This document shows positions 26,735-61,598 of a DNA stretch of 61,598 nt, piece by piece. Numbering within the stretch: position 1 is the first letter of the stretch; every line of letters starts with the position of its first letter. A program made the position numbers and the translations under genes. This DNA is from Candidatus Iainarchaeum sp. (GTDB lineage Archaea; Iainarchaeota; Iainarchaeia; Iainarchaeales; DTGL01): NCBI GenBank assembly GCA_038895395.1, contig JAWANJ010000002.1:1-61598 (forward strand), written 5' to 3'. Below the pieces are notes generated by a model, which was given only the letters and a program-made list of their open reading frames with translations, was not told the DNA's origin and did no database searches.

Positions 26735-26763
26735 ACAAACACCTTCCTACGCAATTTTTGCAT

Positions 26764-28075: not shown

Positions 28076-28184
28076 GCTCTCTGCATAGATATTCTTTAAT
28101 CTGTTTTTAATTCTTTACCTTTAGTTTTGTAAGTTAAAAATAAAAAGACGAACAAAAAACAAACCAATTTAAACAATTTTTCCC

Positions 28185-28805: not shown

Positions 28806-28811
28806 GAAATC

Positions 28812-29126: not shown

Positions 29127-29188
29127 TATATTTTTAAATCTGATTCAATCATTTTTAGGAGCTAAAAAAAAAAAACAAAAAAAAACGA

Positions 29189-29263
29189 AGCCCCGGGCGG
29201 GATTTGCACCCGCGACCTCCACATTACCAGTGTGGCGCTCTTGCTGACTAAAGCTACCGGGGC
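29189..29263 (-). tRNA. tRNA-Thr(GGU)
   Basis: Hand-folded 75-nt cloverleaf: GCCCCGG/CCGGGGC acceptor, anticodon arm CCACA-CTGGTAA-TGTGG, T arm GCGGG-TGCAAAT-CCCGC. Confidence 0.9.
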
Positions 29264-29297
29264 ATTTCAACATTAACTTTTTTGATGGAATTTATTT

Positions 29298-30560: not shown

Positions 30561-30573
30561 TGAATCACCAAAA

Positions 30574-30645
30574 GGCCGCGGCTGGGATTCGAACCCAGGC
30601 CAAGGGCTCCACAGGCCCGTATGCTACCGTTACACCACCGCAGCC
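30574..30645 (-). tRNA. tRNA-His(GUG) with an encoded G-1
   Basis: G-1 plus GCTGCGG/CCGCGGC acceptor, C73 discriminator, anticodon loop CTGTGGA, T arm CTGGG-TTCGAAT-CCCAG. It ends 13 nt upstream of the hisS start codon on the same strand. Confidence 0.85.
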
Positions 30646-30862
30646 ATACAACAAAAATAAATAGATTTTGATGATTTCATTAAAAAAAACATGCTCAGTA
30701 CTAAATTTCCTTAAGCACATTTCCAAAAAGATTCGAGCAATGAAGTAAATCCCCTTTCTTTGCCATACAATAAAACTTCTGCCAAAGTTATTAAAAATTG
30801 TTTACATCTAAAGATAAGCAAGAAAGGCAAATTTTTAATATGTTTCTGACAAAAACCTTCTA

Positions 30863-31933: not shown

Positions 31934-31980
31934 TCCTGATTAATGCTCCTTTTGATTATGGCATACATCCAAACTGCAAT

Positions 31981-32064
31981 TGCAGGAGGGCGGATTCGAA
32001 CCGCCGAAGGCACTAAGCCACAGCGCCCTGAACGCTGCCCCTTTGACCGCTCGGGCACTCCTGC
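31981..32064 (-). tRNA. tRNA-Leu(CAG), long variable arm
   Basis: Hand-folded 84-nt cloverleaf: GCAGGAG/CTCCTGC acceptor, anticodon arm CAGCG-TTCAGGG-CGCTG, variable arm TGGCTTAGTGCC, T arm GGCGG-TTCGAAT-CCGCC. Confidence 0.9.
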
Positions 32065-32096
32065 ATAAAACGCCACGTTCTTACTAAATTTATGCA

Positions 32097-32168
32097 TGAC
32101 CCTGCCGGGACTTGAACCCGGGTCAGCAGCTCCGCAGGCTGCTATGCTGTCCACTACACCACAGGGTC
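32097..32168 (-). tRNA. tRNA-Arg(GCG)
   Basis: Hand-folded 72-nt cloverleaf: GACCCTG/CAGGGTC acceptor, anticodon arm GCAGC-CTGCGGA-GCTGC, T arm CCGGG-TTCAAGT-CCCGG. Confidence 0.9.
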
Positions 32169-44200: not shown

Positions 44201-47200
44201 ACCGAGATATTTATGTTGCATGAATTTGCATCTATAGTCATTGTGGTTTCATTTTGTTCTGGTTTTAAAACAATCTTTTTTGGATAGCGTATGCAATCCT
44301 TTAAATTCACAATCAGGATATTGGCATTTATTTTTGAATCAGCTCCAACAAAGACAAGCCCTTTGTCTGTTTTTATCTGACCATCGAACTCAATTGTAAA
44401 AATTGCGGTTTCGCCTTTGTATTCTTCTCCGGGTTTGAAAGTGATTATTGTAGAGTAAGTGCCAGAACGTAACTCGTTTTCAAATTTATCAAACAATTTT
44501 GTCCAAACACCACTTCTTAAAATCTTTGTAACTGTTGCTCCACCGGGGGAATTTATTGTGATTTCCACAGCCCCAGCTTTTTTTGAGTTTGATGCCCAAG
44601 TAAGCTTTGCTTGGAGATTTTCAAGATCTACGGGTTTGCCGTTGCTTACACACAAGTTAGATAACTTAACTTCTGTCTTTGCTAGGTTGTCTACAGTTGC
44701 TATGTTCCATTCTGGTACATTTGGGCCTGATAAAGATATACATGGGGCGTTTTCTGGCAAACCGCCTAAAGAGACATTTGCAGTAAAAGGAACAACAAAA
44801 GTATATGTCAAAGAGTGCTTTTGTACCAACACAATAATTTCTATGCTTCCAGATATTTGAGTGTTGCTCTGTAATAGTGACTCTGCATTTGGCGAAAGTA
44901 GCACTTTAAGTGCAAAGTCCAGCTGGTCTTTTGGTTTTACTTTTTGTCCAACAACCGTTGTTGCGTTTGCATTCATTGTTTTTTCATCCAATATATCATA
45001 AAAGTTTCCAACAAATCTTACACTCTTTAACAAAAGTTCTGAGCCGCTTTTATTCTCCAGACTCAAGACTATCTTTTCTTCTGTCTTTGAGGATGTGTTT
45101 AAGCTAACAGAAACACTTTCTGGTACAACGCGTGCAACATTAGAGTCGATAGTAATGACTTTTTTGAAAGGAGAATAACCCATTTTTTCAGCAGTTATTT
45201 CTACTCTGGTGTTTGGTAGTGATTCTACTAACTTAAAAACTGCAAGCCCATTGGCATCAGTAAGTTGCTGAACCACTTCATTAGTGCCATCATCATGTGT
45301 TCTGTGCATTGTTACGAGAACATCCTTAACCTTTTTCTTTTCCCCATCTCTTATATTAACCTTAAGCTCATATTCTGTGAATGGTGCCAATTTCTCTGGT
45401 TCAATGTTTACGTCGAGCTTTCCGACAGAGTAAACCTTTATTGGAACTACTTTGGAAAAAACTACAAATTTGTCAGCAATTATGTCTATTGCTATATTAG
45501 TTGTTGTTTCATCGTTTGTTTTGAACCTTATGTTTGTATTTAATGTCTTTCCATAATCAAATCCAACTAAGTTTTCTTTAAACTCATTGTCTTGTGGCAT
45601 ATACTCTTTTTGCTCGATATCAGCTGTTATCAACATCTTTTCAAAGACCAACGCTGAATCTGACTTTCCTTGTGTTTTGTTTTTTATTCTAATCTCTAAC
45701 GAACCATATTCTTTTTGTGAGTTGTTGAGCAAGTCTAAAATAAGATTGTAGTCTCCAAACAGCACTGTTGAGTAGGGTTCCTTTAAGAAGATATCCTCTT
45801 GTGCATCGTACATCCAAACGCCTGTAACACAAAAAAGCTCTTTGCAAACCCCTTCAGAGCCTTCATAAAATCTAATTTCATGCGTTTTAGCATATAGAGC
45901 ATCCTTTGTGGATGTTCTCTCTAGATCGCCAAGCTCTTCATCATAAGGTTCTCTTACATATGCAGTGTTGATAACCGCATAGCTTCTATAATGGAAAGTT
46001 ATGGGTGTTTTTGGTCTTGTAGAATCCTTGATTTTAATTTTTATTGGTACTGTGTATACAGAGGCTTTGGGGCTCAACCACTCTATGGATACCCATTTTC
46101 CGTCTGATCCAACAATTTCCTCTAGCGCTTCGGACTTTGGCGGATTATATGTTTTACCTATTCTAACCATGGTTCCTTTGATGTCAACGCCCTTTATAAA
46201 TGCTGGCTCCAAATTAACATCACTTTTTTCACCTATTCTAAAGTGGAATCCAACTTTTGAAGCACCCGGTGGGTAAAAAAGCATAAATTTGGCAACATAC
46301 TCTTTGCCTGCCTTGATGCTAGCAGAAGCTCCGCCATTTTGATCAAAGATACCTAAAAATTCAATCTTTGGTTTTGGAAGCTCACCTTCTTTGAGCAACA
46401 CTGCTTTTATTTCATATGTTTCGTTTGGCCATAATTGTATGGTTTCACTTTCATAGTTAAGAAAGCCATCTTTGCTTACCACAACATATATGCTTTGGGC
46501 TGCTTTAACCTCATATTCCTTTTCACCATCAACCATAACAATTTTGCCCTTTGTAAGAGAATTTCTATCTATGGAGGAAAAAACTTCAAAATAAGACTCC
46601 GGAATCTTAATACCGCGAGAATCAAATGCACTTACCTTAAGAATGCTCTTGCCAATCGTTATGGTAACCTCGAAATAATTGTTTTCGTCTGGTATTATTT
46701 TCTTAGCCTGCGCTGCAGAACCTCCAGATGCTGGATATTTTATAACAAAAGGATATACCTCTTCACTTAACCAGCCCAAAACAAATTCAGCTATGCCATT
46801 AGAGTCTGTAAGCTTATAGTTTTGACTCGAAGGAAGTTCAACAATAGAGTCAGTAGCTTTGTACTTAAACATTACCTTAGCATCTTTTACAGGTGCTCCG
46901 TCTTCATCAAGAACTTTTACAATAGTTCGCCCACTGTTAGCCTCAGTTATTCTTTCGAGCTCAACAGTTAAAGATTCCATTGAAGAGCTGATGTTTATGT
47001 CTAAAGTTTTTGGGAAATATCCTTCTTTTTTTGCAACAACAGTATATTTGCCAAAATCAAAAAAAGAAAATCTAACAACACCGCCTTCTTTTGTAATATC
47101 GCTTGCAATTGCTTTTTTATCAAATAGGACTTTGACTTCTACGTTCTCTACAGCACTTTGAGTTTCCATTTCAATTGTTCTAACTAATAAAACCGCACTT

Positions 47201-48165
47201 ATTTTTTTGCTAAGTTCCACATAAACCTCTGTTGTTTCTTTTGCTCTGACAACTGCAGTTATACAATTTCCTGAATAAGTTTGTTCCGGGTCTGTAGCGA
47301 AAACATTGTACAACCCAGGAAGCAGACCATCAAAATCAACTAACCCATAGCCTTGTGTATGAGCAACCTGTTTTGTGCCATCTTTTTCTATGTTTACGAC
47401 TATATTTTTTTTAAGTATCAACTCTTTTTTTTCATCAACAATTTTTACCCTTAGAGCGCCTTTAGGTATTTCAATCTCTTTGAAAATAACTAGAATTTCA
47501 GTCCCTTTCTGGATTGCTCTCTCAAATTCATGGTTTTCCAACTCCGCATTTTCAACCTTTAACTCTTTACAATCCAAAGGCAATGTAACTTCTATGTAAC
47601 CATCTTTGTCAATGTCAACTTCCTTCCAAGGGTTGATTGACTTATTCGAACAACTCAGCCAAACAGTTACAAATTTCCCTCTTGTTGAACCTTTGCTTGT
47701 TTCAAATCGTAATATTCTTTTTTCCAATGGTTTTTCTCTAAGTTTAAGAGTTAGTGTTTTATCTGTATCCTCTTTAATGGTAAAGTTCCATTCCTCATCT
47801 AAATATAAAGGATGCTTAACTACAATCCGTACCACTGCATTTTCGTCAACACTAAATGAAATTTTTCCTTTATCATCAGTCCTTCTAATTTTTGGTTCGT
47901 TTCCAATAACAAAATTTACATCAATTCCAGATATGGGCGCCCCTTTTTCATCTTTGAAATAAACTGTGAAAGTATAACGCTTTGGTGGTTTTGTTGGTTC
48001 TTGACTGAAAAAGAGCCAATATGCAAAAAAAGCTAAAATTATTAGTAGTATAAGCACAATTGGCAGGGCTTTTGGAATTCCTCGTCTTTCACAAAATGCA
48101 ATGTACCTTTCTTTTAGAGTTGGTGATGAATCTTCTTCTATAAAATCCATTATCCACACCAACAT
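41278..48165 (-). CDS. giant surface protein G1 (2295 aa)
   Basis: Uninterrupted 6.9-kb ORF. Architecture: N-terminal TM anchor (nt ~48005-48070), six beta-sandwich repeats, a conserved core, a two-helix hydrophobic hairpin (FWVNVAVAAGAGLLAGVTCA-TQG-GFWAGVLCFVGAAITTFFTI, nt 43639-43767), then a ~780-aa C-terminal region. Colinear with G2 and G3. The likely start is the second ATG (MDFIEE, nt 48150), which is preceded by GGTG. Confidence 0.85.
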   Translation of the reverse strand: MLVWIMDFIEEDSSPTLKERYIAFCERRGIPKALPIVLILLIILAFFAYWLFFSQEPTKPPKRYTFTVYFKDEKGAPISGIDVNFVIGNEPKIRRTDDKGKISFSVDENAVVRIVVKHPLYLDEEWNFTIKEDTDKTLTLKLREKPLEKRILRFETSKGSTRGKFVTVWLSCSNKSINPWKEVDIDKDGYIEVTLPLDCKELKVENAELENHEFERAIQKGTEILVIFKEIEIPKGALRVKIVDEKKELILKKNIVVNIEKDGTKQVAHTQGYGLVDFDGLLPGLYNVFATDPEQTYSGNCITAVVRAKETTEVYVELSKKISAVLLVRTIEMETQSAVENVEVKVLFDKKAIASDITKEGGVVRFSFFDFGKYTVVAKKEGYFPKTLDINISSSMESLTVELERITEANSGRTIVKVLDEDGAPVKDAKVMFKYKATDSIVELPSSQNYKLTDSNGIAEFVLGWLSEEVYPFVIKYPASGGSAAQAKKIIPDENNYFEVTITIGKSILKVSAFDSRGIKIPESYFEVFSSIDRNSLTKGKIVMVDGEKEYEVKAAQSIYVVVSKDGFLNYESETIQLWPNETYEIKAVLLKEGELPKPKIEFLGIFDQNGGASASIKAGKEYVAKFMLFYPPGASKVGFHFRIGEKSDVNLEPAFIKGVDIKGTMVRIGKTYNPPKSEALEEIVGSDGKWVSIEWLSPKASVYTVPIKIKIKDSTRPKTPITFHYRSYAVINTAYVREPYDEELGDLERTSTKDALYAKTHEIRFYEGSEGVCKELFCVTGVWMYDAQEDIFLKEPYSTVLFGDYNLILDLLNNSQKEYGSLEIRIKNKTQGKSDSALVFEKMLITADIEQKEYMPQDNEFKENLVGFDYGKTLNTNIRFKTNDETTTNIAIDIIADKFVVFSKVVPIKVYSVGKLDVNIEPEKLAPFTEYELKVNIRDGEKKKVKDVLVTMHRTHDDGTNEVVQQLTDANGLAVFKLVESLPNTRVEITAEKMGYSPFKKVITIDSNVARVVPESVSVSLNTSSKTEEKIVLSLENKSGSELLLKSVRFVGNFYDILDEKTMNANATTVVGQKVKPKDQLDFALKVLLSPNAESLLQSNTQISGSIEIIVLVQKHSLTYTFVVPFTANVSLGGLPENAPCISLSGPNVPEWNIATVDNLAKTEVKLSNLCVSNGKPVDLENLQAKLTWASNSKKAGAVEITINSPGGATVTKILRSGVWTKLFDKFENELRSGTYSTIITFKPGEEYKGETAIFTIEFDGQIKTDKGLVFVGADSKINANILIVNLKDCIRYPKKIVLKPEQNETTMTIDANSCNINISVWLCKDDPRCRGGTKEGGITLVPYEELKFTKNETSKTITIHREQIPGIYGITLYAKAPETEYQYIDTIDTIIEPGKGQYFSMNRYEFILTAQTNWKDSANLINKMWVEDVNITAKLCTACREGEELPEYCVMNKALQRATLDKPGFWVNVAVAAGAGLLAGVTCATQGGFWAGVLCFVGAAITTFFTISGAQCDVQMATYAFMDYVINLPSDIKRLEVLELPYDVALSKEEGESNYSKKEQIVTINFENNTNRAAEKGEYGILEIVVNEHIHGDPTHLNPKMERDKADFGVFNVPDTETREYSQKVHLRFVTNSNIGDKLKSISGLKGCSLGTKTGYLAEDVSPKVKLDWRWDSIDWNSCDAENESAIYCDAVQNSIALTKRLYMLEEFFKANDYYFACPKHPRSVLSEGISKSTTDGKSTAIIRSNEVGISNLDYKLNASRTAVTLSATIENKTSEDQKLRVKFLLKSSDYAKECEKEINVVKNTVTTVECLFDNLDKGKNDVYFGLAYITQCSRGCNTSKEVTVAFTISADNGECWIPYSTKKIEGVPALFYFIDRNLSNWNEYVNVKEIKWPSGWPGSTVQEKIQFLKKLLEFDALLIMDGYTEDFKSDFAEYYTTQTFFEVPFWFKNSGGFKEYFISQNALAFETGNPERKLLGPGRYHVFLEIDFNNSFSFFRNNKPNALVKVKYSKISPPEPESLFYYWPIDGEVGLKSSNGRIGYGSGYENTSKPITISNYGGIELRTEGSKGAPLVKVRTEIIDDIKYTNVDPKTRGNILSGTIKENELLLRFSPNTASIAIMKVSDQTSKKLDEKLTASYKLLENGKTTDVGDNLAYWNWIESCKSSENESLSEILNYPDKKLEPETYGLEFDRGMEIRNDFFSSVFFSPQGKNYVLTSASPNVKFLDQQLSEHIAHNLKGAENPEVGSIKELIEKAKEGLLCVDANDNSMSLWWNPKALKENSVINVLTRRSCN

Positions 48166-48179
48166 TTACCTATTTTGCT

Positions 48180-51100
48180 TTAGTCTTTTATACACTGTGA
48201 AGGTATGCTTTCTATAGTGTTCTTTAATGACGAATTGATGATCTCTTGCTGATTCCAGAAAAATATCGCTCTTGAGTCACTTCCAGCACCGGCGATGCAA
48301 ATTTTCTTTTCTTCCACTAACCTAAGTATCTTTTCTATTGAGGTTATTATTGTCTCTTCTAAGCCACCAGCCTCTACACGATTTCCAGTACCTTTTGGAG
48401 TTATAAAGCTTGCACTGTCCATAGCACTCACAATCTCGAGTAAAGCTGTACTTTCCTGTGGAGTATACAAGACAGTCTTAAGGAATGTATCCCCTTTTCT
48501 TATCACGTTGCACCATTCAATACCATATTGGTGTGTATCAAAACTTCCAGCACATTGGGTTCTACCAACACCTCCACGAATGTCTCTTTTGTAGTTAAAA
48601 GCTTCTGTCACATCAACATCACTGAAGTCTTTACAGCCTTTTGTAACACCAGCCCATGTGAAAAGATTACTAGACGCTTCCTGAGGTTTACCATTTATCG
48701 TAAGCTGGTAGAACACATACGCTTTTGTTCTTTCACCTCCGCTTACCTTGAGTATTATTGGTGTGACAACGCTTGGGCTATAAATCATACTTATACCACT
48801 GGCCGCTTTTTCAAGTTCTAAAACAACCCCTGGAGCATCATTGTGCAAAGTTTTAAAGTCTTTTACAACGCGGGCCTCTATCCACCCGCCAGGTATTGGC
48901 ACCGAGTTTGCAATTGTGGTTGTTCTTACTGGTTGTCTTATGTCCTCATTTATTTTTACAGTTTCTTCTGATTTTTGCCTGTAGTTTACTCCATACCCTT
49001 GTCGGCCGTTTTGGCTGTCGACACCTATAAGTCCGTCAAAGGGCATGTAATAGAACACAGAGTCTGGCTTTGGTGTGTCAAGGCGCTCAAATATCACTTC
49101 TATTTTCGCATCAGGCGTGGTGTTTTCAAACAAACACCAACAATTGTTGTTATAATCAATATTTATTTTGATATTATATTTTCCTGCTGGCAGATAGCCA
49201 GCTTCAGGCCTTAAGAATGATGACTTAAACTCAAACAGTTCTGGGTTTGAAAAGAATTTTCCAAGCCCAGTTTCTCCCTTATACCAAGATGGAGTGCTAA
49301 AGAAGTCTTTTGTTTCAGAGAACTCATGGAAGTCTCTTCTAAAGTCTAGCGTATAGCCATCTTGGATAAGATATGCATTAAAATTCACCAGTGATAATGC
49401 TTCTTTTAGGTTTGCGTTTGTTGGGTTGGCAGCAGCAAACTCTGCTAAGCGTTCAGTGGTATAAGGCTCACATTTTTCAAAGATTCCGGTTGGAGCACCA
49501 ACTGAGAATCTTGTGCTCAAAATATCATTGCCAAGGTTTTCATTTTTACAAGTTCCCGGACATGTGCTAAGCTGTGGACTAACTCTAATTGTGGCTTCAT
49601 ACAAACCTTCTGCAAGCTCATTAAATGTGCAACTAACCTCGCTATCGTCAATCACTTTTATTGCTTTTTCACCTTCTGGACAGCTCAAAGTTGATCCATC
49701 TTTTACAACATTTATAGATACGTTAACAGTTAGCTCTTTTTTGTTGTTGCTTGAGATTATGCCAATTACTTTGGCATTAGCTCCACTTTTTTCAATCTTT
49801 ATTTTTGTTACAGCAACGTCAAGCTTTAATGAGTCTAATTCCTGACTTCTTTCGTTCAGAATCCCTTCAGCTGAAGGACATTTCAGTTTTTGGCCTCTTA
49901 GCAATTCATCAATCCTTCTTATTTTTTTAAGCAACTCAATACTTAACTGAGTTGCATCGCAATAGTATCCTAAACCACCTTCATCACATTCATTTATAGC
50001 AATATCTTTCCAATTCCAAGCAAGCTTTATCTTAGGTAGAGCTTCCTTGCCAGTTGAGCCCACAAGAGCACCAACCTTACAACTAACCTCGGGCTTAATT
50101 GTAATCTCGGTGGGTTTTGACCTATGGGAGTTGAACTGTAGATGGAACTTTTGCAAATATCTTTCACCACCAATTACTGTTGGCTCCATCTTTTTCATAG
50201 CTTCAGCATCTTTCTTCATTCTAGTGTCATAGTTGGTGTCATACTCTAAACGATTTCCATCAACCCTAAGTACGCGATATATTGGTTTGTATATGTCTTC
50301 TTGTTGTATGCCATTGTTTTTGAATATAATTTCAATCTTCTCGAAACCTAGTGGTTTATCGGGTGTGGTTTCGACTTTACTATCGCCTTTTTGAACACTA
50401 ATCAGAGTTTCAATTTCCTCTTCTAAACCTTTTTGTATTACAAGTTGTAAGTCTGTTATGTTCAAATCCCTTACTGCAGCAACCACCTCAAGTACGCCAA
50501 CGTTTTGGCTTTGCTGCCAGTAGGTATATAAAGTGCCGGCTATGAAACCTATCAATGCCCCAGTCCAGGGGTCGTCTATGTTTATTATATTGCTAAAGAC
50601 ATTAAGACCGCCTTGTAAAAGACTTCCTATACTTTCTAATGAAAAGAACCCGACAGGTGCTGAGGTTACCATAACAGTTTGGTTGGGTTTCAATTTTGTG
50701 CTTACAACCGTGCTTGTTTTTCCAGCACTACTTAGATTGCAAAAGCTATTGTTGCAACTCTTAAACTTGTAGCAAGGCCCACTTTTTGAACACTCTACAT
50801 CATATTCACATGTAACCGCAAGTTCGCAATCACAAACCTTGCTCAAACCTGAGCCATAAGCTTTTTGACATTTGGCTAGTGTATCATAGCATCCGAAGCA
50901 CAAATTGCTGCTAGGTGCTATATCAGCACTAACACACTGGCCATTGTAGCACTTTGCACCAGTTGCGCCACAATCCATAAAAATGCCTCTTTTACCACAA
51001 CTGTCTTTCCAATAAAGCTTGTCATCCTCGCAATAGTATCCTTCAACAATACATTCTTCTCCAGACATAGCGCCAGAAGATCCACATCTGCTATTATTAC

Positions 51101-54100
51101 AATATCCAAATCTGTAGCATTTACCAAACTCATCATATATGCAGGTTATTGCAGCATAGCAATCGCATCCGCCTGTTGAAATCGTGGGGTTATTCCAAGC
51201 TTTCGCAGCGCATTCAATCTCAGTACTGTAACAACCTGGGATTTTTGGTCCAACAGCTGAAATAAGGCCACTTCCAGTTGTCGGCTGTTCTGGTCCAGCA
51301 CAATCGTTTTTGCAGCATAGCACAAACCTTTCGGCTGTTTGCATCGAAAATGTGCAATCTGGATAGCACTCCTCATAAGACTGTATCCTTCTTGAATTCA
51401 AGTAGTATGTTTTGCACATTTCTTCATCTGTTGCAGGCGATGTTACAATTGGAGATGTTGTAACAGTGGGCCTTGTGGTGCCAGTGGGTGGTTTTGTGCT
51501 CTCTTTTACACACTGTTTGCTACAACAAGTAACATTACCAACTACTGCATAGGCAGCATCAGGGCATAACTCATCTTCTTTACAAAAATATTTTCCAGCA
51601 GATGTGCAGACCTTTTCAGGGGTTTCAATTTTCGTGTCTTTGCACTTACCAGTGCAGCATACAACCCCTTCAACTACAACCTCTTTGCCTTGACTTAAAT
51701 CACAGTTTCCAGGCCCGCAGTAAGTGTAACCCTTCTTTTTACACCATTCTTTATCCAAACGAGCTTCTTCTGTTATGCACTCTGAAGCACAGCAAGTTAT
51801 ATTGTCAACTACTACTATCTTCTCATCTTTACAAAGATTTTTGGTACCACAATATTTGTATCCAGCCTTGTTGCAAACATTTGAAGGGATGGGTGTGCCA
51901 AAGAATGTTTTGCCAGCAGCAAGTGATCTTACGCCCCCATAAACAAAACCAACAAGCCCCCAGATAGCGCCTGTTTTTATCGCTTCCCACCAATCACGTT
52001 CATCATAGCTTATCGTAATTGTTTCTGTCCTTTTATAGCAGTCATTTATGAGCAATGCTGTATCAAATCCATCATATGGATTATTTTCGTCGTCATATAT
52101 ATCAAACTCATATCGATTCAGTCTTAAGCAACCATCCGGCTCTATGATAACCCTTATTAGCTTCTTAAAAGAGTATTGACTTTCACCCATACTTTTGACC
52201 ATAACATAAATAGGATATTGTCCCGGTATGTCTTGTTGAGACGGCATTACAATTATTTCTTTTGAGTCATCTGGTTTCATGGTAAATTCTTTTTCTGATA
52301 CTGCAATCTTTGTATCAAGCATGAAATCAATGGGTACTTTACATTCTTTAGTTTCGATTTTTATTGTTGCTTCGTTGTAATCAACAATTCTAACTAATGT
52401 TTTGTCAAATCTTATGCAGTCTTCCAAGCTTATTATTTCTATTTCAGTATCTATGCTCGCGCTTAGGACTTGCTTGCCTGCATTTGTATAATGTTCTCCA
52501 GTGATGATCACCTTTGCTTTTGCTGTTCCTGTAATGCCAGCATCTGGTAAGAATTTCAAAAGTGCTGAAATTTCTTCCTCTGCGCCAAATGTGCCTTTAA
52601 TAATTTTTGGATAAGAACCGCTAAGCTCTAATGCGACATCGCCAATGCTTACATAGTAATCTCCAACACGATTGCTCTGCCACTCTATCCTTGCGCTTAG
52701 GTTTTTAAGATCTATTGGCTTGCCGTCAACTGTACAATTGTTCTTAACTGAAAAGTCAGTGCTCACTTCATTGCTTTTTGTCTTTGTTTTCCACTCCTTT
52801 ATGCTAACCACTAAACATGACGGATCTTCAACTTCACCACCAAGACCTATTGAAATTTTGACCTTTGTTTCAGAGTTCCAAACATGTCCAAAGGCCTTTA
52901 CCGAAGAAACGCTTGCTGTCAAGATACCTTCTAAGGTTTTGGCCTGTGTCAAAGTTTTTCCAAAATCGCTCAAGGATACCTTAAGAGCAATGTCAAGTTT
53001 GTCATGTGGCTTTATTTCTTTACCAACATATTCGCCTACAAGCCAGTCCCTTACTTTTCTTTCATCAATTGCTCCATAAAAGTCTCCAGAAAGCTTAATT
53101 CCATAAACCTTCAGTGGCATTGCAGTCTTATTTACTAATCTTACTACGGCACTATCTTCAGTCTTAGAAACAACATTTAATTGCAGGCCTATTTCAGATG
53201 GCTCTATGCCAAGCACATTACCATCAGCAAATATTTCCTTCTTAGCTTCCTCGTAATCTGGCTTCTCTGCAGTTAGTACTAATTTTTCTCCAGGCATCAA
53301 TGCTGGTAGCTTGACTTCAGCCAAGCCCAAAGAGGTTGTAGTTGTTTGAAGCATTGTGTTGCCATTTGGATCCTTTATTTTAACCAAAACATCTGAAACT
53401 TCCAAGTTTGTTTGCTTGTCTCTTATCCTTGCTATTATTTTATTTTCTACACCACTGGTTAGTATTGGCGCTTCAGATTGGAAAGTATCTCCAACTTTAA
53501 AGTCTATAATGAAGCTCTTGGCTGCAATTATATCAACAAAGATTGTTTCTTCAAATACGTGTGCAAACCTTGTTGGATCATGTAACCTAATGGTTATACC
53601 TCCAAACTTTCCAGTGGTTGGTGAAAAGTTTATATAGCCGTGAATCTCAGTGTTTGGTTTAACGTCACCAATCTCTATATAAGATGTCTCACTTGCATTT
53701 GCAGTTCCTTTCACAACTGTTTCGCCATAGATTTCATAATTGCTAAAAACAATGTTCTTTTCACTGTTGAATATCTTAAGCTTTACCTTGCTGTAGCTGT
53801 CAGTCTCAAATTTGCTATTGTTTGTAATACTGAATATTAACCTATATTGTTTTCCAACTTTGGCACTATAGCTTCTATCTATATAAACAGCAACATTTTC
53901 TTCAATGTCTAAAGCTTTAAAGACAGTACACCACTTTTCTGTGCATAACCTCTCTTCACCTACGCTATAGACACGCTCATAGGTTTTTGCATACAGCTCC
54001 CTATCACTTAAAGCATTTCCAAGAGTTATGTCTTCTGGATCCCTAACCAAAATACCTTTTCTTAAACCCCACGCACGCCACATAATGCTAAGCTCTTCAG

Positions 54101-56327
54101 CAGCTGCCGACTCTTTGACCTTTACTTTAACATATACATATATTATTCCATCGCTTTGCTTGCTCCACTCAAGGTTTATCCACTTAGAGCTTTCTGCACT
54201 TAAAGAGGCAAGGTCATATGTCGTGCCTTCTTCTGGATTATAAGAAGTTCCTCTTATCATTTTTGGGTTTCCACCTGCATAGACCTCCTTTATGAAAATA
54301 AAGTCTTTTTCCATAATGTTATATTTACCTACCCTTACGTGAGCACCAAAGCGGTCATATTGAGCAGACCTGGGTACAGAAATTTTAAACTTTGCAATAT
54401 ATTCTTTGCCTGCAGCCAAAACCATTACATTCTTTTCGTCCTTGAAAAGACCTAAAAACTCGATCTTTATTTCACCACTAATCCTTTCAGCTTCAAGCCT
54501 TATGTTCATGCTCCTTTGTTCATTTGGCGCAAGCACAATCCTCTGGCTTATGTAAGTAGCATACTCTGGGTGACTAACAAAAAGATAAAATGAAAGGCCC
54601 GCATCTATGTTTATATCAAGTTCACCACTTATTTTTTCTACCTTTAATGGACCTTTTATAACCTTATCCGTGTAAGCGTCTTTTACTATAACATCACTAA
54701 AAGGTAGAGCTTCGTCATCAGTGTTTGTTACCTTTAGCTTTAAAGTTGCTTTTGGTATATCAAGCACAATAATTGCTTCTTGTTCAATGCCAAGCCTAGG
54801 TATAAACTCAATTACATCGCTCCAGTTGCTACCAAATCCTTTATAAGCAAAGAATTTGTATTTTCCAGCGTACAAACCTTTAAATTCTGCTCTTCCATTC
54901 ATATCAGTAATCATTTCCTTTAACCCAAGAGCATTTCCATTACTGTCATAGGCAGCTACCTTTGCGTTTGGTATTGATATGCCCTGAGAATCAACTACTT
55001 TCACAATAACTAAGCCCCCACAGTCATTCGCATAAGGCTGTAGTTCTAATTTTATGATGCCCTCTGATTTTCTCACATCAGTAAGCCTATGCACGCAATA
55101 GTCTGGGTGATTTATCACTAATAAGAAGTTTATATCTTCACAAAGGTGAAAATCAACCCTGCCTTCTGAATTAGTGTCAGCAGAAGCATATTGTTTGTTA
55201 CCTACAAAAAGCGTTGCCTTTGCTCCTTCGAGTGGTTTTGAGGTTGTTTTATCAACTACTTGGATTTTTATACTTCCAATATACCTTGGTGTAAGCTCTA
55301 GGCTAACAGTTCTATATTCGTTAGCTCCAATAGTTATAAACTGAGATTCAGCAGATGTATACGTAGTAGTGGCTTTTGTTTTAACCCTATAACTTCCGGG
55401 CAAAACCTCAAATAATACTTGACCACCACTCGTAACTCCAGATTCAACGAAAACAGGTGTTGCACCAGTGTCTTTTTCAAGGTCAACTATGATGTTTTCA
55501 GATGGTGCCTGACCTTTGAATGTTACATTTACTATTATTTTTCCTTTTTGTTCTGGGGGTTTCATCTCAACAATCTTTTTTAGTAAAATAGTCGACCCAT
55601 CTGTAACGCGAACACCTTCTTTAGCTTCATAGCCTCTGGTGCTTAAAGTTACAATCAGTGGAAGGCAGTCAATTTCAACATCATCTATTTGTACTTCCCC
55701 ACCGTGTGTTGTATATTTCTCAGCATCTGCGGGCGGATTTGCTTTTTTGTTAGAGCACTCAAAAGAAAGCGAAATCCTTTGGACGATGGGCTCTTTATTG
55801 TTTTCGTCTAAAATCCTAAAGCTTACTGTTTGCGTACGGATAATTTCGGTAAGTAAAAAGTTAATAACTACATTTTCATCTTCTTCAATTAAAACACTTT
55901 TTTCAATGGGATTCGGCTTGAATCCTTCTTTAGAAACACGCAAAGTTATTGAGTCACCCTTTTTAACAGCAATCGCTTCTGATAGAGTCCCAGCAGTATT
56001 AGTGGCACTCCTATAAACCTTTTCACCCAAGAGCATTTCAACATTTGCCCCTTCTAAAGGCCTTTTTGCACCAAACCTGTCTTGATACTGAACAAACACG
56101 TTAACGTAAACATCTTTTTTGAATACACTTATTGGCAGAAAGAAAATTACTAACGCTGCTATTAATACTAGTGCCAATATTATTAGCAAAAGGAATGAGG
56201 GAAATACCTTATCAATAGCGTCAGTTATCTTATTTATAGGTATCTTTGTGCTAATCCTGTCTATAATTTCGTAGTATCTGTCCTCAAGATGCAAATAAAG
56301 TTCACGCAATGCACTTATTACGCCCAT
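48180..56327 (-). CDS. giant surface protein G2 (2715 aa), paralog of G1 with a 448-aa Cys-rich insertion
   Basis: Uninterrupted 8.1-kb ORF ending 14 nt upstream of G1. Same architecture as G1: TM anchor (nt ~56130-56205), six CarboxypepD_reg-like repeats (e.g. VIVKVVDSQGISIPNAKVAAYDSNGN...TDMNGRAEFKGLYAGKYKFFA), then shared motifs in the same order. Confidence 0.85.
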   Translation of the reverse strand: MGVISALRELYLHLEDRYYEIIDRISTKIPINKITDAIDKVFPSFLLLIILALVLIAALVIFFLPISVFKKDVYVNVFVQYQDRFGAKRPLEGANVEMLLGEKVYRSATNTAGTLSEAIAVKKGDSITLRVSKEGFKPNPIEKSVLIEEDENVVINFLLTEIIRTQTVSFRILDENNKEPIVQRISLSFECSNKKANPPADAEKYTTHGGEVQIDDVEIDCLPLIVTLSTRGYEAKEGVRVTDGSTILLKKIVEMKPPEQKGKIIVNVTFKGQAPSENIIVDLEKDTGATPVFVESGVTSGGQVLFEVLPGSYRVKTKATTTYTSAESQFITIGANEYRTVSLELTPRYIGSIKIQVVDKTTSKPLEGAKATLFVGNKQYASADTNSEGRVDFHLCEDINFLLVINHPDYCVHRLTDVRKSEGIIKLELQPYANDCGGLVIVKVVDSQGISIPNAKVAAYDSNGNALGLKEMITDMNGRAEFKGLYAGKYKFFAYKGFGSNWSDVIEFIPRLGIEQEAIIVLDIPKATLKLKVTNTDDEALPFSDVIVKDAYTDKVIKGPLKVEKISGELDINIDAGLSFYLFVSHPEYATYISQRIVLAPNEQRSMNIRLEAERISGEIKIEFLGLFKDEKNVMVLAAGKEYIAKFKISVPRSAQYDRFGAHVRVGKYNIMEKDFIFIKEVYAGGNPKMIRGTSYNPEEGTTYDLASLSAESSKWINLEWSKQSDGIIYVYVKVKVKESAAAEELSIMWRAWGLRKGILVRDPEDITLGNALSDRELYAKTYERVYSVGEERLCTEKWCTVFKALDIEENVAVYIDRSYSAKVGKQYRLIFSITNNSKFETDSYSKVKLKIFNSEKNIVFSNYEIYGETVVKGTANASETSYIEIGDVKPNTEIHGYINFSPTTGKFGGITIRLHDPTRFAHVFEETIFVDIIAAKSFIIDFKVGDTFQSEAPILTSGVENKIIARIRDKQTNLEVSDVLVKIKDPNGNTMLQTTTTSLGLAEVKLPALMPGEKLVLTAEKPDYEEAKKEIFADGNVLGIEPSEIGLQLNVVSKTEDSAVVRLVNKTAMPLKVYGIKLSGDFYGAIDERKVRDWLVGEYVGKEIKPHDKLDIALKVSLSDFGKTLTQAKTLEGILTASVSSVKAFGHVWNSETKVKISIGLGGEVEDPSCLVVSIKEWKTKTKSNEVSTDFSVKNNCTVDGKPIDLKNLSARIEWQSNRVGDYYVSIGDVALELSGSYPKIIKGTFGAEEEISALLKFLPDAGITGTAKAKVIITGEHYTNAGKQVLSASIDTEIEIISLEDCIRFDKTLVRIVDYNEATIKIETKECKVPIDFMLDTKIAVSEKEFTMKPDDSKEIIVMPSQQDIPGQYPIYVMVKSMGESQYSFKKLIRVIIEPDGCLRLNRYEFDIYDDENNPYDGFDTALLINDCYKRTETITISYDERDWWEAIKTGAIWGLVGFVYGGVRSLAAGKTFFGTPIPSNVCNKAGYKYCGTKNLCKDEKIVVVDNITCCASECITEEARLDKEWCKKKGYTYCGPGNCDLSQGKEVVVEGVVCCTGKCKDTKIETPEKVCTSAGKYFCKEDELCPDAAYAVVGNVTCCSKQCVKESTKPPTGTTRPTVTTSPIVTSPATDEEMCKTYYLNSRRIQSYEECYPDCTFSMQTAERFVLCCKNDCAGPEQPTTGSGLISAVGPKIPGCYSTEIECAAKAWNNPTISTGGCDCYAAITCIYDEFGKCYRFGYCNNSRCGSSGAMSGEECIVEGYYCEDDKLYWKDSCGKRGIFMDCGATGAKCYNGQCVSADIAPSSNLCFGCYDTLAKCQKAYGSGLSKVCDCELAVTCEYDVECSKSGPCYKFKSCNNSFCNLSSAGKTSTVVSTKLKPNQTVMVTSAPVGFFSLESIGSLLQGGLNVFSNIINIDDPWTGALIGFIAGTLYTYWQQSQNVGVLEVVAAVRDLNITDLQLVIQKGLEEEIETLISVQKGDSKVETTPDKPLGFEKIEIIFKNNGIQQEDIYKPIYRVLRVDGNRLEYDTNYDTRMKKDAEAMKKMEPTVIGGERYLQKFHLQFNSHRSKPTEITIKPEVSCKVGALVGSTGKEALPKIKLAWNWKDIAINECDEGGLGYYCDATQLSIELLKKIRRIDELLRGQKLKCPSAEGILNERSQELDSLKLDVAVTKIKIEKSGANAKVIGIISSNNKKELTVNVSINVVKDGSTLSCPEGEKAIKVIDDSEVSCTFNELAEGLYEATIRVSPQLSTCPGTCKNENLGNDILSTRFSVGAPTGIFEKCEPYTTERLAEFAAANPTNANLKEALSLVNFNAYLIQDGYTLDFRRDFHEFSETKDFFSTPSWYKGETGLGKFFSNPELFEFKSSFLRPEAGYLPAGKYNIKINIDYNNNCWCLFENTTPDAKIEVIFERLDTPKPDSVFYYMPFDGLIGVDSQNGRQGYGVNYRQKSEETVKINEDIRQPVRTTTIANSVPIPGGWIEARVVKDFKTLHNDAPGVVLELEKAASGISMIYSPSVVTPIILKVSGGERTKAYVFYQLTINGKPQEASSNLFTWAGVTKGCKDFSDVDVTEAFNYKRDIRGGVGRTQCAGSFDTHQYGIEWCNVIRKGDTFLKTVLYTPQESTALLEIVSAMDSASFITPKGTGNRVEAGGLEETIITSIEKILRLVEEKKICIAGAGSDSRAIFFWNQQEIINSSLKNTIESIPSQCIKD
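50568..51911 (-). other. Cys-rich insertion of G2 placed between the two hairpin helices (helix a 51912-51974, helix b 50517-50567)
   Basis: Contents, in order:
- Three ~40-aa 6-Cys repeats (C.K.GY.YCG...C.....VVV....CC...C; nt ~51510-51875).
- A Thr/Pro linker (TKPPTGTTRPTVTTSPIVTSPAT, nt ~51425-51500).
- Two ~55-aa 8-Cys repeats (GCY.T...C.KA......CDC....TC.YD....C.KF..CNNS.C; nt ~51072-51236 and ~50725-50894).
- Other Cys-rich modules. Confidence 0.8.
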
Positions 56328-56435
56328 ATTATCATCAAATTTAATGTTTTTAACTTTAATATATTTTTTGTTTATTATATTATTTTGCTTTTTATTTATC
56401 TAATATCCATTTGCTGCCCAGATTTGTTGTCCAGT

Positions 56436-59400
56436 TTACTGCCCAAACAAAGTTGGATTCCATCTTAACCTAAGTTGAGCTCTATTTATGTTATCTATAC
56501 ATATCTCCCCTGAAGCTATTCTTTCAATGTACTCCTTAAGTGATGGTTGTCTTATTGCTTCTATGATCCTCACAGCGCCGCCTTCAATTCCACGCGTTTC
56601 CGGTGTGCTATACTCTTGACCTTCATATGTTAAAGTGCTCAAAACTATTGGGTTTTTGGCACAAAGAACCTCAAGTTTTAAGTATTCATCAGCTGCTTTT
56701 GCAGGTACATAGCTTACAGAAACCCATAAACCTTGTCCTAATATTAGCTTTGATGCTTCAATGCTTTGTGACCAGCCACTGCAAAAGCTATCTGGTTTTT
56801 GTAAGCCAAATCTGTCAACACTAAACTGAACTTTTTCTTCGCCTTCAGAGCCCGCTCCTTGCTCATTGGGCACTAAAGAACCAACTTTGTGCCATACAAA
56901 TAACTCTTTTATATCTCCATAATATTTGTCATCACTTAGTTTGTAGTAAATCACATTTTGGCCCTCAGTTGGTGAAATTATCCTTAAAAGCACCGGGTAG
57001 CTTGGCACATATTCAATTTTTCTAGACTTAAGATCTATATTCAAAACAGTGCCGGTGCGACTTTTCTCAAATCTGCTATTATAATTGAGTGTAATTGTAC
57101 CAATGCCCGGCTTTCTTGGATAGATGCGCTCACCATGTTCATTGTATAAAAGCTCTGAAGGTACGGCACCAGCAAGTGTTAACCCCAAGCCATAATTTGC
57201 ACCAGTACTTTCTTTGCCTATCTCGCCATCGAATGACATATACATTAATGGATTTTCAGAAAACTTTGTTTTTAAGCGCTTGTCTATAGCTTCTAGAGAT
57301 TCTACTAGGGCCAGCTTTACAATATACTTTGATACAATAATTTTAGGAGGTCTGCCTGCAAAGTCTATTGCTATTTTAGGTTCAATTCTGTAAGCATATC
57401 TGCCGGAAGCAATACTACATTCCGTGCTTTTTTGTACCATTTCTTCTGAAAAGTTAGCATCTTCATAGCGCTTGAACTCAAGCTGATCTACATTAAGGCC
57501 TATTTGCTTAAGTGTTTCATTTCCTTTATCTAGATCTTCTATTAAAGCTCTACTCAGATTATCAGCCTTAAGATAGCTCTCTGCCTTAGCTATGAGTGAT
57601 TCTTCACTAGGTGTGCTTAACACATCAAGTGCTCTAACCCTTATGTATTCTTCCATCGCCCCAGAAAGACCTGGTTTGTTAATTACTGCAAGCATAAATA
57701 CAGTCCTATTTGCAAATTCAGATAAAAATAGGGTCCATTCCTGTTCTTTTGCTGTAATGGTTACTTGACCTATGGTTGCTGTTATTGGTAAATTCCTGTC
57801 ACCAAACATGATGTTGTTTCTTACTCCAATTGAAAGCTGTTCATACAGGCTAATATACTCAGCAAAGGTTATAACATAAACACTTTGTCTTGGTAGTTTA
57901 ACCTCGTCCGCTACCTGTTTAAGTTTACTCCAAATTAATTGAGCATTGGCGCTATAGTCAATATCTTTAGAAACAATAGCCAGTGCATTTTCTATCTTTA
58001 TATCGTTTGCATAGCATTGCGCTAGTATGCTATCAAACTGGGCATGAGACATTTTCATGGAGTCTAATGCAGCCAACTCATTTTGTGGAGCTTTTATAAT
58101 ACTGTTCAAAGTAGCTTCAATTTGTGCTACATTACACTTTTCCAGTGGTACAGGTGGCTGCCCAAGAATAGTACCTTCTTTTGTAACAAACAAAAGAATC
58201 GGCTTATTTGAAAAATCATCTCTCACAACAATCTGTGCCTTTGAGAGTTTGTAAAGTTTTCCTTCCTGGGAGTTTATCTCACGCATTAATTCTTGGTCTT
58301 GGCCTATGATTGAAATTACACTTAAATACTCTGCCGGAGCACTCTTGTTTATCTCTTCAATCTTTTGATTTATTTTTCTTATTTTTGATGCAATTTGCAT
58401 TATAAATTGCGCTCCATCACAGAAGTACCCCTCTCCCGATGGTTCAGGTTCACACTTTCTACTTGTTATCTCATCAGGTCGCCATGTAAACAGCAATCTG
58501 TCAAATCCATATACAGAGTAACTTTCCTGACTGTTGCATGGCTTAAGCATACCCCAACTTGGCATAACATCTATTTTTGCAGCTCTATTTTCACAACCTT
58601 CAGATAACTGTGAAACACCCCTGTTCAAAGCATTTACCACTACTTTTAGCTTTGCATCTTGAGTACCTTTCTTGTAATAAACCCTGGTTACTTTTATTGG
58701 TAGGTCTATGTTTATCTTTGCACACTCAGTTATCATTTTACTTCTGTCAACTTTCATTACAATATGATGCCTGTTATGCGTAAGTTCGAAATAAAGCTTT
58801 ACACCCGACTTTGGATCTTCCCATGAAGATAAACCAATACTAGCTATATAGTCGTCTTTACCACAAAAAGCTCTAGCATTTGAATCACTTGAAGGATCAA
58901 CCTCTTCGTTGGATCTTGCGTAAGGCAGCACAAGCTCAGTCACAGGTGGGTTTTCATTCCAAACAAACATGTCATCTATGAAGTGACTATCAGTTAGCAC
59001 ATCTGGTACAATGAGAGCGTTGGGGTTTATACACTGTGCTGGTTCAAGATTCTTGGAGCCTTTGTTTAATAAGCTGCCAATAAGACCAAGCCATGCCAAT
59101 GGATTTTCAAATGTCACACCAACAGGGAAGTATTTATCTCCGAGGTATGGTACATACATTGGCACAGCTATGATGCCTGGAGAAACAGCAGCAAGATACT
59201 GTTCAGTTGCTATAAACCTTATGTTTCCAACAATTTCTTCTACCGAACCTTCAAAGCTGATTGGTGCTGTTTTTTTGATCTCTGGATCAAACCACAGATA
59301 TATTTCCATTATTTGCCACTCTTCTTTATCCGAAACTTTTTGCACCTCATTTTTTCCCATTACAATGTTTTTTATCATAGGGCATGGCCCTTCAAGCGAT

Positions 59401-61598
59401 GTGCCTCCTGTTGCTGGTGAATAGCAATGAATATTATTTAATGTTAAATGTTTTAGTACATAGCCAAGATGGTAACATTTATTGTAGATCCTTGCTACTG
59501 TTTTCTGCCACCCCAAAAAGTTTGCTTTTAGCACAGTTGGTTCTATCGTAGGTAAACATTCCTCTTGGATTTCGTCTCTTCTTACAACTTTGACAGAAAA
59601 GCTATCTATTTCTTCAGCCCTCTTGCTTGATGATGAAAACTTTGCAAGCATCTTTACGTTAAACTTTCCTTTGCTTGTTGATGGCTCAATTATGAAACTA
59701 GCTGATGAGCCAGACCCAACTTTTTTGCTCGATGGTTTGACCAATAAACCGGAATCAAACTGTATAGTTATATCTATGTCTTGGAGACATGTGTTGTCAA
59801 CAATTATTTCTGCAGTTTCCGATTGGCATTTCCATTGTGTGCTTTGCCCTGGTTGTGAAGTTTGCCATGGGGGAACATACTGCGCTGTTGGCCAAATAAG
59901 GTTTTGCTGTGTTTGTTGCTGTTGTGTAACATCATAAGGATCTCTATCAAAGTATTTGCTGTTTAGACCCCACCCAGTGTCAAAGCCACAACTTTTTAGT
60001 TCTATATCAGTTGCTCTCACAACGTGCACACACTTCAAAAGATTGTTTATTGTTATGCTCGTGCTTAAAGTTGCTTTTGGAATCTCAACGCCCTTTTCTG
60101 AGTAATGAGTTGCAGAAAATTCAATTCTTGGTTGTACACTTGCACTAGTAATTTGATCATTAGGCCTAAAAAACAAGATGAGTTCCTGCTCCGCGTTCTT
60201 TGAAAATGATTCGCTAAGCAATGTCCATTGAGGCAAAATTTCAGTTAGTTCGAGTTCTTCACTGCTTACCTCAAAAGTTCCGACTGGACTTTCGCCAAGC
60301 CATCTTATCCTCACACTAAAATCTTTGAGTTCTACTGGCATTCCTTGAACAGTACAGTTATTTTTTACTGTTAGCACAAGCTTCTTTTGTTCCCCATAAC
60401 TTTTTATTTCCCAAGATTTTGGTTCAATCAAAATACATGCGGTGGTATCAAGTGCACCTTCAAGAGTTATTCTTATTTTTAGTTCTACTGAAACAGCCCA
60501 ATCCTTTGCAAGCTGGTTGTTATCCACACTTATTGTTATTGAACCCGCTAGTTCTTGTATATTTTCTATTTCTCTACCTTTCTCAGTGAGTTTTGCCTTT
60601 AGTTTTATAGAGGTATTTGATGTTGGTTTAATCTCCTTTCCAACAGCCAAAGTGCTACCACTTATTGATACAAGATCTTCAAGACCTGAAAAGCTGATAT
60701 CTTTTATATAAAGAGAAAAAGGTGCTACATTTTCCAAGTTAAGGGTTATATCTGCTTCTTCTCTTGCGTTGGGTTGAAGCTCAATGTCTATGCTGGGTGG
60801 CGTAACCTTAAGTACACCAGACTCAACTTTAATCTCTTGTATCAAAGTTCTAAATCCCTCCCGCGAAAGCTTTCGATTTTCTGCAGTTGGGAAGGTACGG
60901 TTTGAGAGAAAAACATACACCAAATTGTTATCAGGGTCAGCCCACGCACAGGTGCCTGTGAATCCTGTATGTCCAAACACACTTTGAGGGCAATAATCTG
61001 AGGTTGGGCCATCGCCTGATTGAGGTTTCATGAGCGGCTTATCCCAACCTATACCCCTTCGGTTGTCGTACTTGGCGTTTGGGCGCGAGTTAAACTTTTG
61101 CATAGTGGCTTGTGAAAAAAAATCTTCTCCTCCGTATTTTCCGCCTTGTAGGTTCATTTGCAGAATGGTAGCTATATCGAGCGCATTTGAAAAAAGCCCT
61201 GCATGCCCTCCAACACCTCCTTGAAGCGAAGCCATGGGGTCATGAACATATCCCCTGACAATCTGTTTTCGGTACTGCAAATCGTATTCACTGGGAGCAA
61301 TCAGATTACAGTCTGCTTTGCGCAGTGGGTTGTATCCAATGTTTTGCAAACCAAGCCTATCAAAAAGATTGTTTTGCAGATACACATCAAGCGTATAGCC
61401 CGTAATGGTTTCTATGATTTTTTGCAGAAAAAAAAAACCTAAATCACTGTATAAATACCCGAAGCCGCCGTATTTGTTGCGAAGTTTGGTCAGGCGGCTG
61501 TTGAGTGCCATTTCAAAAATCAAGTCGGGCAAATCTGTTCGTGCGTGGATGTTTTCACAAACTTCAATATTGAAAGAGTCGCTTTTTTAAGTTGTGAG
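56436..61598 (-). CDS. giant protein G3 (at least 1720 aa; 5' end outside the window)
   Basis: The frame stays open from the TTG at 61532 to the window edge (...SFNIEVCENIHARTDLPDLIFEMAL...). From aa ~236 onward it is colinear with the C-terminal ~1300 aa of G1 and G2. The N-terminal part is a beta-lactamase-family serine hydrolase domain. I see no long hydrophobic helix in the visible part. Confidence 0.8.
60825..61598 (-). other. beta-lactamase/PBP-like (class C-type) serine hydrolase domain at the N-terminus of G3, truncated by the window edge
   Basis: YLYSDLGFFFL (Y-x-N/D motif), GGVGGHAGLFS, GHTGFTGT (KTG-box equivalent, nt 60951-60971) and VYVFLSNRTFP are typical of the family. The SxxK motif would lie beyond the window. 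The domain ends at ...LIQEIKV and the G-core begins at ESGVLKVTPPSIDIELQ (nt ~60824/60825). Confidence 0.75.

Follow-up and report, generated by a model that had tools for sequence, protein, structure and literature searches.

The window analysed here is an entire contig of 61,598 bp (JAWANJ010000002.1), as judged from the longest contig in the cluster of its own terminal gene call (P0121), which measures 61,598 bp. The contig encodes archaeal EF-1alpha, EF-2, ribosomal protein S7, CDC48, a family-B DNA polymerase, HisRS and BpsA, together with Rpb1-type and split Rpb2-type RNA polymerase subunits, and its source is a Diapherotrites-like (DPANN) archaeon. Three giant proteins, G1, G2 and G3, are encoded on the minus strand, and the open reading frame (ORF) of G3 is joined, near the contig end, to a fragment of a bacterial-type serine hydrolase. 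The origin of this joint, and of the two sequences that meet there, is the subject of the present analysis.

The closest relatives of the giants are found in Candidatus Diapherotrites metagenome-assembled genomes (MAGs) and related metagenome contigs. Five full-length G3 orthologues (P0122-P0126) share 67, 57, 50, 43 and 39% identity with the window over 100% of a 1,463-residue core query (60827-56436). All of them are 2,435-2,476 residues long and carry matches to Pfam families of the immunoglobulin (Ig)-like and CarboxypepD_reg types. Their N-termini are composed of a short cytoplasmic segment, a transmembrane helix and ~975 residues of beta-sandwich (Ig-like) repeats, and those of G1 and G2 are alike. 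In the Diapherotrites MAG contig JAOAJX010000006.1 and in the JGI contig Ga0078972_1001964, a giant gene (2,677-2,692 residues) and a gene for a 563-565-residue protein are followed by the G3, G2 and G1 orthologues, and the G3-G2-G1 synteny of the window is kept in the Diapherotrites loci L001 and L002. Given the orthologue lengths and this synteny, what the window retains of G3 is the C-terminal 60% of a conserved gene, with 2.9 kb missing that should be found in the place now taken by the bacterial-like piece. No remnant of the first 976 residues of the orthologues was detected in any frame of the last 900 nucleotides of the contig, and PF00144, the beta-lactamase family discussed below, occurs in none of the five orthologues, the call in the window being its sole carrier among the G3 matches. 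G3 is an ordinary, albeit 5'-truncated, member of the Diapherotrites giant-protein family. The possibility that it is a naturally short paralogue starting near the junction was rejected, as conserved sequence extends further upstream in all five orthologues and in both paralogues.

The giant genes form a conserved cluster of three to four paralogues (2,300-2,800 residues), which occupies 41278-60857 (minus strand) in the window, 1-27320 in L001 and 1-27308 in L002. Each giant of the cluster consists of an N-terminal transmembrane anchor, ~1,000 residues of Ig-like repeats and a C-terminal core of ~1,450 residues; the G3 core has no Pfam match and no convincing sequence match in the PDB. G2 bears, at residues ~1550-1900 (about 50600-51700 of the window, minus strand), a long Cys-rich, repeat-like insert with CC..C..C motifs and a Thr/Pro linker, which is absent in G1 and G3.

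The terminal piece matches Pfam PF00144 (Beta-lactamase) with an E-value of 1.1e-20 and 74.5 bits (gathering cut-off 27) over profile positions 138-320 of 329. The C-terminal ~60% of this domain lies on the contig, and the N-terminal ~40% is absent. Its best NCBIfam match is PBP4B (NF002968; E-value 1.1e-32, profile positions 198-397 of 432), which scores 113 bits, far under the equivalog cut-off of 385. All of the 80 best genome matches of the piece, from 185,579 species genomes, belong to Bacteroidota and none is archaeal; likewise, the named relatives among its best protein-database matches are all Bacteroidota, with no archaeal protein. In an exhaustive HMMER search of 1.84 billion representatives, the best match other than the protein of the window itself is P0131, a 979-residue protein with a signal peptide, a GH3 domain (PF00933) and a C-terminal beta-lactamase domain (PF00144). 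Its locus (L085) is a 48.6-kb JGI metagenome contig (3300040982, Ga0394241_000119) with ordinary bacterial neighbours. Residues 718-972 of P0131 align by tblastn with 61598-60834 of the window at 72.5% identity (E-value 3e-122) and with zero gaps, while the nucleotide identity to L085 is 69.7% and the ratio of nonsynonymous to synonymous substitution rates (dN/dS) is ~0.14. This ratio and the gap-free alignment indicate that the fragment diverged as a working bacterial gene. With P0131 excluded, the mean identity of the terminal piece to its relatives is 47%, as compared to 50% among the relatives, and the piece is unexceptional within the Bacteroidota GH3 + PBP4B-like family.

In an alignment with 11 relatives, the visible part of the hydrolase retains ~50 family-invariant positions, as well as the second and third active-site motifs (Table 1). 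In the relatives, the SxxK nucleophile motif (ASxTK columns; ASVSK in P0131) precedes the first contig-encoded residue by more than 100 positions, and it is off the contig because the contig ends before reaching its place. A signal peptide and a GH3 domain like those of P0131 would likewise fall past the end of the contig. The PF00144 domain in the window is neither complete nor uninterrupted: in addition to the absence of its N-terminal part, it contains an in-frame TAA codon, and its C-terminal helix is cut before the at least 90% conserved Tyr of IQxxIY. The frame around the TAA reads LTT*KSDSF (asterisk, stop). The codon aligns to ACC (Thr) of L085, with homology on both sides (LTT*KSDSFNIEVCEN versus LSRTRKENFEIEVCEN), and is either a nonsense change or an error at the contig tip, rather than a gene boundary. 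An alternative genetic code was considered and rejected, since TAA, TGA and TAG all end ordinary genes of the contig (11, 6 and 5, respectively, of 22 window genes). The gene call P0121 (1,691 residues, annotated with PF00144) starts with the ATG at 61511, within a closed ORF. This Met is downstream of the place of SxxK in the relatives, and the call has neither a signal peptide nor an anchor. A scan of 60400-61598 for sigma-70 promoters and terminators, not designed for archaeal promoters, detected nothing.

The 3' end of the fragment also departs from its family. P0131 ends six residues beyond the alignment, and the other bacterial relatives stop 6-25 residues past the IQxxIY helix, the beta-lactamase domain being always at the extreme C-terminus. 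Unlike these relatives, the window runs on into G3 sequence after RTLIQEI. As a separate observation, a run of ten T (61428-61437, minus strand) encodes GFFFL in the fragment and lies within 41 nucleotides that L085, a relative at 70% identity, shares without a mismatch, an unusually strong nucleotide conservation for coding DNA.

The composition of the terminal piece resembles that of its bacterial relatives, with a G+C content of 44.2%, as compared to 43.4% for the L085 contig, 46% for the P0131 gene and 37.1% for the archaeal part. None of the 2,405 other windows of equal size exceeds 43.0%, and the value for 60860-61598 (z 3.3 against the rest) is thus outside their range. In tetranucleotide composition, too, the piece is the most distant of 602 windows (z 4.2). 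The G+C content at third codon positions is 0.42 in the piece and 0.29-0.31 elsewhere. CGN arginine codons occur at 41 per 1000 (~5 per 1000 elsewhere) and CTG at 25 per 1000 (5 elsewhere), while AGA accounts for none of the 12 arginine codons, as compared to 46% of those in the window genes. The codon-usage log-likelihood (z -2.2, with 8 of 93 reference chunks lower) is less clear than the G+C content, tetranucleotides and arginine codons. Within the archaeal part, the stretch with the highest G+C content (42-43%) coincides with the Cys-rich insert of G2.

At the joint, bacterial-type homology to P0131 extends down to 60834 and archaeal-type homology starts at 60857-60863, which defines a shared zone of 23-30 nucleotides. 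BLASTP alignments of the window ORF with P0122 and P0123 start at orthologue residue 977 (window REGFRTLIQEIKVES, P0122 KTGFRKLVQEIKIES), and the paralogues G1 and G2 align to G3 from the same point. The protein sequence across the joint is ...NRKLSREGFRTLIQEIKVESG... in the window, ...NRKLSRESYRTLIQDCIYQALR* in the bacterial relative, where it is the very C-terminus, and ...VVGRKTGFRKLVQEIKIESS... in the archaeal orthologue. The native sequence of either parent at this place is R(T/K)L(I/V)Q(E/D). The corresponding DNA is GGATTTAGAACTTTGATACAAGAG in the window, TCCTACCGAACTTTGATACAGGAT in the bacterial relative (13 consecutive identical nucleotides) and GGCTTTAGAAAGTTGGTTCAGGAA in the archaeal orthologue. 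Owing to this codon-for-codon likeness, the join is automatically in frame and yields an apparent hybrid ORF of 1,691-1,716 residues. The similarity is a chance likeness between unrelated elements, on the hydrolase side the C-terminal helix and on the G3 side the closing strand of an Ig-like domain. Overlaps of this sort are where a cross-over by a de Bruijn-graph assembler, a template-switching polymerase or illegitimate recombination would be expected.

To place the break in a structural context, an AlphaFold model was obtained for residues 895-1144 of P0122 (eight aligned sequences, mean predicted local distance difference test score 84.6). The model contains two beta-sandwich domains. The strands VLKVVGR and LVQEIKIE (E89-96) end domain 1, and domain 2 starts at LKLT. 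Foldseek matched the model to tandem Ig-like domains (alpha-2-macroglobulin, integrin and ASH-type). In the orthologue segment upstream of the break, the Pfam scan gave sub-threshold Ig-like matches only (E-values 0.003-0.2), and the Ig-like domain boundary therefore rests on the AlphaFold model and the Foldseek matches. As modelled, the break would lie inside the Ig-like domain, between its penultimate and last strands, with the last strand kept as an orphan in the window. The junction respects the structural boundaries of neither module, as both the Ig-like domain and the C-terminal helix of the hydrolase are cut. When a 140-residue query centred on the junction was used for the exhaustive HMMER search, only the protein of the window itself spanned the junction, and all other matches stopped at query residues ~70-92.

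Table 1. Coordinates of the features at the G3 joint and of the giant genes.
Feature	Position	Strand	Description
Foreign terminal piece	60858-61598	minus	3' end (~255 codons) of a Bacteroidota-type GH3 + beta-lactamase-family (PBP4B-like) gene, without the final ~6 codons and stop
In-frame TAA codon	61587-61589	minus	Putative nonsense codon interrupting the beta-lactamase-family frame; three codons before the contig end, where the ORF is closed by it
Y-S-D, second active-site motif	61443-61451	minus	YxN equivalent; column invariant in the window and 11 relatives
H-T-G, third active-site motif	60963-60971	minus	KTG equivalent; columns invariant in the window and 11 relatives
Junction/overlap zone	60834-60863	minus	Codons R-E-G-F-R-T-L-I-Q-E, compatible with both parents; cross-over somewhere inside
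LIQEIKVE	60822-60845	minus	Predicted orphan last beta-strand of the Ig-like domain found ahead of the G core in every orthologue (AlphaFold model of P0122 895-1144)
Genuine archaeal part of G3	56436-60857	minus	C-terminal ~1,474 residues, colinear with P0122-P0126
G1	41278-48165	minus	Giant gene
G2	48180-56327	minus	Giant gene
G3	from 56436 onwards	minus	Giant gene

An earlier note on this DNA, made from the sequence alone, had recognized in the terminal ORF the C-terminal part of a class-C beta-lactamase/DD-peptidase-like hydrolase of a bacterial kind, in agreement with the PF00144 and PBP4B matches, and the peptides it quoted (YLYSDLGFFFL, GGHAGLFS, GHTGFTGT, VYVFLSNRTFP and LIQEI) are an exact translation of the minus-strand frame of 60828-61586. 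Its hand counts of G+C content, 50.0% at 61021-61080 and 33.3% at 58201-58260, are exact as well. The compositional break that it drew from these two lines is real in terms of G+C content, tetranucleotides and CGN/CTG codons, and the sliding-window G+C and codon-usage check that it proposed shows the break at the terminal piece; the contrast over the whole piece, however, is smaller than that between the two lines. On the other hand, the ORF does not remain open to the window edge, as had been stated, but is closed by the in-frame TAA in both the ORF listing and the gene call. Nor does the join fall exactly at a domain boundary where the homology block begins (IQEIKV/ESGV), because the homology begins 11-13 residues further upstream, at (RE)GFRTLIQEIKV (nucleotides 60857-60863).

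Taken together, these observations make it most probable that no real fusion exists here. We favour, with a probability of roughly 0.78, an inter-genome chimera at the contig end, either an in silico product of the assembler or one that arose in vitro in the course of library preparation or of amplification. The reasons are the terminal position of the foreign piece, the cutting of both partners within structural elements, the unique architecture, the bacterial composition and selection signature, and the shared stretch at the joint. What each half is and from which type of source it comes, where the breakpoint lies, that relatives lack the fusion and that the terminus is foreign in composition are direct observations; an artefactual join, as opposed to one carried in the DNA of the archaeon, is what we infer. 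The foreign piece makes up the terminal ~750 nucleotides, or ~1.2% of the contig, and a true internal junction would be expected this near an end of a 61.6-kb contig just ~2.4% of the time. The two sides differ in taxonomic affinity (archaeal versus Bacteroidota-type) and in composition, and they meet at a shared stretch. A genuine fusion would be expected to recur in relatives or independent assemblies, but this architecture is seen in none of the five orthologues and in no other protein among the 1.84 billion representatives. Among the misassemblies in the CAMI benchmark datasets, inter-species translocations were the commonest type (preprint 10.1101/2021.06.22.449514).

In such a chimera, the archaeal Diapherotrites-like contig should have continued into the 5' 2.9 kb of G3; what was joined to it instead would be the 3' end of a gene for a GH3 + PBP4B-like serine hydrolase, contributed by a Bacteroidota-type bacterium that co-occurred with the archaeon. 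One sequence would give way to the other within 60834-60863, where the bacterial ...SRExxRTLIQ(D/E)... and the archaeal ...GFR(K/T)L(V/I)QEIK... share near-identical residues and similar codons. The earlier note had itself named a chimeric assembly as an alternative, and this is the explanation that the evidence favours. Its preferred idea, a genuine domain fusion with a peptidoglycan-directed hydrolase carried by a surface scaffold, is not supported, in view of the internal truncation of both partners, the five orthologues that lack the hydrolase, the nonsense codon and the absence of a parallel among the 1.84 billion representatives.

Several points weigh against a chimera. The case for an artefact is built on sequence comparison. 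The join is near a natural limit of either partner (bacterial stop, six codons; Ig-domain boundary, ~13 residues), in frame and in the same orientation, a coincidence of ~1e-3 for uniform random breakpoints; a k-mer-driven join would instead be placed by local similarity. The 13-nucleotide identity to the bacterial relative is no proof that the real parents shared a full assembler k-mer (at least 21 nucleotides). Furthermore, neither a bacterial gene identical to 60858-61598 nor the intact 5' part of the archaeon's G3 was found in the collections searched. The donor search suggested by the earlier note thus reached the Bacteroidota type, with P0131 as the closest relative at 72.5% identity, but not an identical gene.

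As for these searches, an exact 36-mer from the HTG region had no match in metagenome or genome contigs, and an exact 25-mer common to the window and L085 had none in metagenome contigs. The latter scan also missed the contig of L085 itself, and the contig collections are therefore incomplete for a donor search. Contigs with the exact sequence of the G3 call or of G2, sought as an independent assembly, were not on record for either. A word-indexed protein search with the fragment, and then with a two-sequence profile, gave a best match of 50% identity and listed only proteins of up to ~450 residues. It missed the 72%-identical P0131 even with the P0131 C-terminus in the query profile, and the lack of a closer donor can therefore not be concluded from that search.

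Among the alternatives to a chimera, the one that survives best is a real, recent event in vivo, in which microhomology-mediated illegitimate recombination brought bacterial DNA with the 3' end of a GH3 + beta-lactamase-family gene into the archaeal chromosome. The 5' part of G3 (2.9 kb) would have been replaced or displaced, and the product would be a disrupted gene or a fortuitous, functionless hybrid ORF. The microhomology at the joint is of the sort that illegitimate recombination also uses, the unameliorated composition suits a very recent transfer and the TAA codon suits a decaying fragment. Moreover, bacterial-type peptidoglycan-degrading genes have been reported in DPANN archaea and attributed to horizontal gene transfer (PMC9723730). 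However, the remaining 1,474-residue core of G3 is fully open and colinear with its orthologues, implying that the disruption would be extremely recent; the junction lies at the very end of the contig, no second example occurs in the relatives or databases searched, and the prior is far lower than for a misjoin. We consider such an event unlikely. Very improbable is a join in the archaeal chromosome by which a Diapherotrites archaeon very recently captured the C-terminus of a Bacteroidota GH3/PBP4B-like hydrolase in place of the anchored N-terminal third of G3; if true, a bacterial-cell-wall-directed module would have been created, or would be in the making, on an archaeal surface scaffold. 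Least credible is a functional fusion, with the PBP-like serine hydrolase as an N-terminal module of the giant surface protein G3 that acts on the cell-wall polymers of another organism, since the in-frame ORF, the intact YSD, HTG and ~50 family-invariant positions, and a joint no more than ~13 residues from the Ig-domain boundary and near the hydrolase domain end are set against a stop codon inside the hydrolase domain, a gene start downstream of the SxxK place that provides no signal peptide or anchor, a truncated C-terminal helix that has lost its conserved Tyr beside an orphan Ig strand, five orthologues with a different, conserved N-terminal third and no PF00144, an architecture unseen elsewhere among the 1.84 billion representatives, and a composition that is not ameliorated.

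For practical purposes, trimming of the contig at about 60.86 kb is advisable, and the G3 gene should be treated as 5'-truncated. Pending read-level evidence, neither a new architecture nor gene transfer between domains should be argued from P0121 and its PF00144 annotation. The locus also teaches that an in-frame join near domain boundaries can come from a chance, codon-level likeness of unrelated genes.

A few features elsewhere on the contig were recorded in passing. The largest RNA polymerase subunit, which is split in most archaea, is encoded by one unsplit ORF of 1,262 residues with Rpb1 domains 1-5 (7914-11702, minus strand), and an unsplit gene of this kind in a DPANN lineage may be noteworthy. 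The second-largest subunit is split over two genes (11709-13535 and 13541-15016, minus strand). Seven tRNA genes (Thr twice, Glu, Met, His, Leu and Arg) lie among housekeeping genes over 8 kb (24022-32168), all on the minus strand. A 323-residue ORF (20918-21889, plus strand) has a sub-threshold match to the neurotransmitter-gated ion-channel ligand-binding domain (E-value 1.8e-4, 21.4 bits versus a cut-off of 26), and could encode a protein like the pentameric ligand-gated channels or represent a chance match.

A comparison with known systems places the joint in perspective. If true, the fusion would suggest that a giant surface protein of a DPANN archaeon presents a bacterial peptidoglycan-active enzyme, which would be a direct clue to an interaction between archaeon and bacterium. 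GH23 lytic transglycosylases, which are peptidoglycan-degrading enzymes of the bacterial type, have been reported in DPANN Woesearchaeota (PMC9723730), and they provide a precedent for the acquisition of bacterial cell-wall-active enzymes by DPANN archaea. Those genes, however, were reported from several MAGs (five phylogenetically distant ones of Lake A, AR20 and four further public ones), and are not lone, truncated fragments of foreign composition at a contig end. Such acquisition is thus not unreasonable in general, but it is unsupported by this locus.

The fragment itself most resembles the Bacteroidota GH3 (NagZ-like) + beta-lactamase proteins of ~900-1000 residues, such as P0131, with which it shares 72.5% identity free of gaps, a similar G+C content and the YSD and HTG motifs; it differs from them in comprising only the last quarter of such a gene, with a nonsense codon and without the final ~6 residues and stop. 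E. coli PBP4B (YfeW) represents the best curated-family match (NF002968/PF00144) and belongs to the same class-C beta-lactamase/DD-peptidase-like fold family, whereas the fragment is partial, reaches 113 of the 385 bits and has its nucleophile motif off the contig. On the archaeal side, the G3 core is colinear with the membrane-anchored Ig-like Diapherotrites giants of ~2,440 residues (P0122-P0126), at 39-67% identity and in the same gene order, while the G3 of the window carries the bacterial fragment instead of the N-terminal 976 residues with the transmembrane anchor and Ig-like repeats. With inter-species chimeric metagenome contigs, the locus shares the abrupt switch of taxonomy and composition, the short foreign terminus and the join at a shared stretch; here that stretch is bounded to 23-30 nucleotides by sequence comparison, rather than seen as an exact k-mer.

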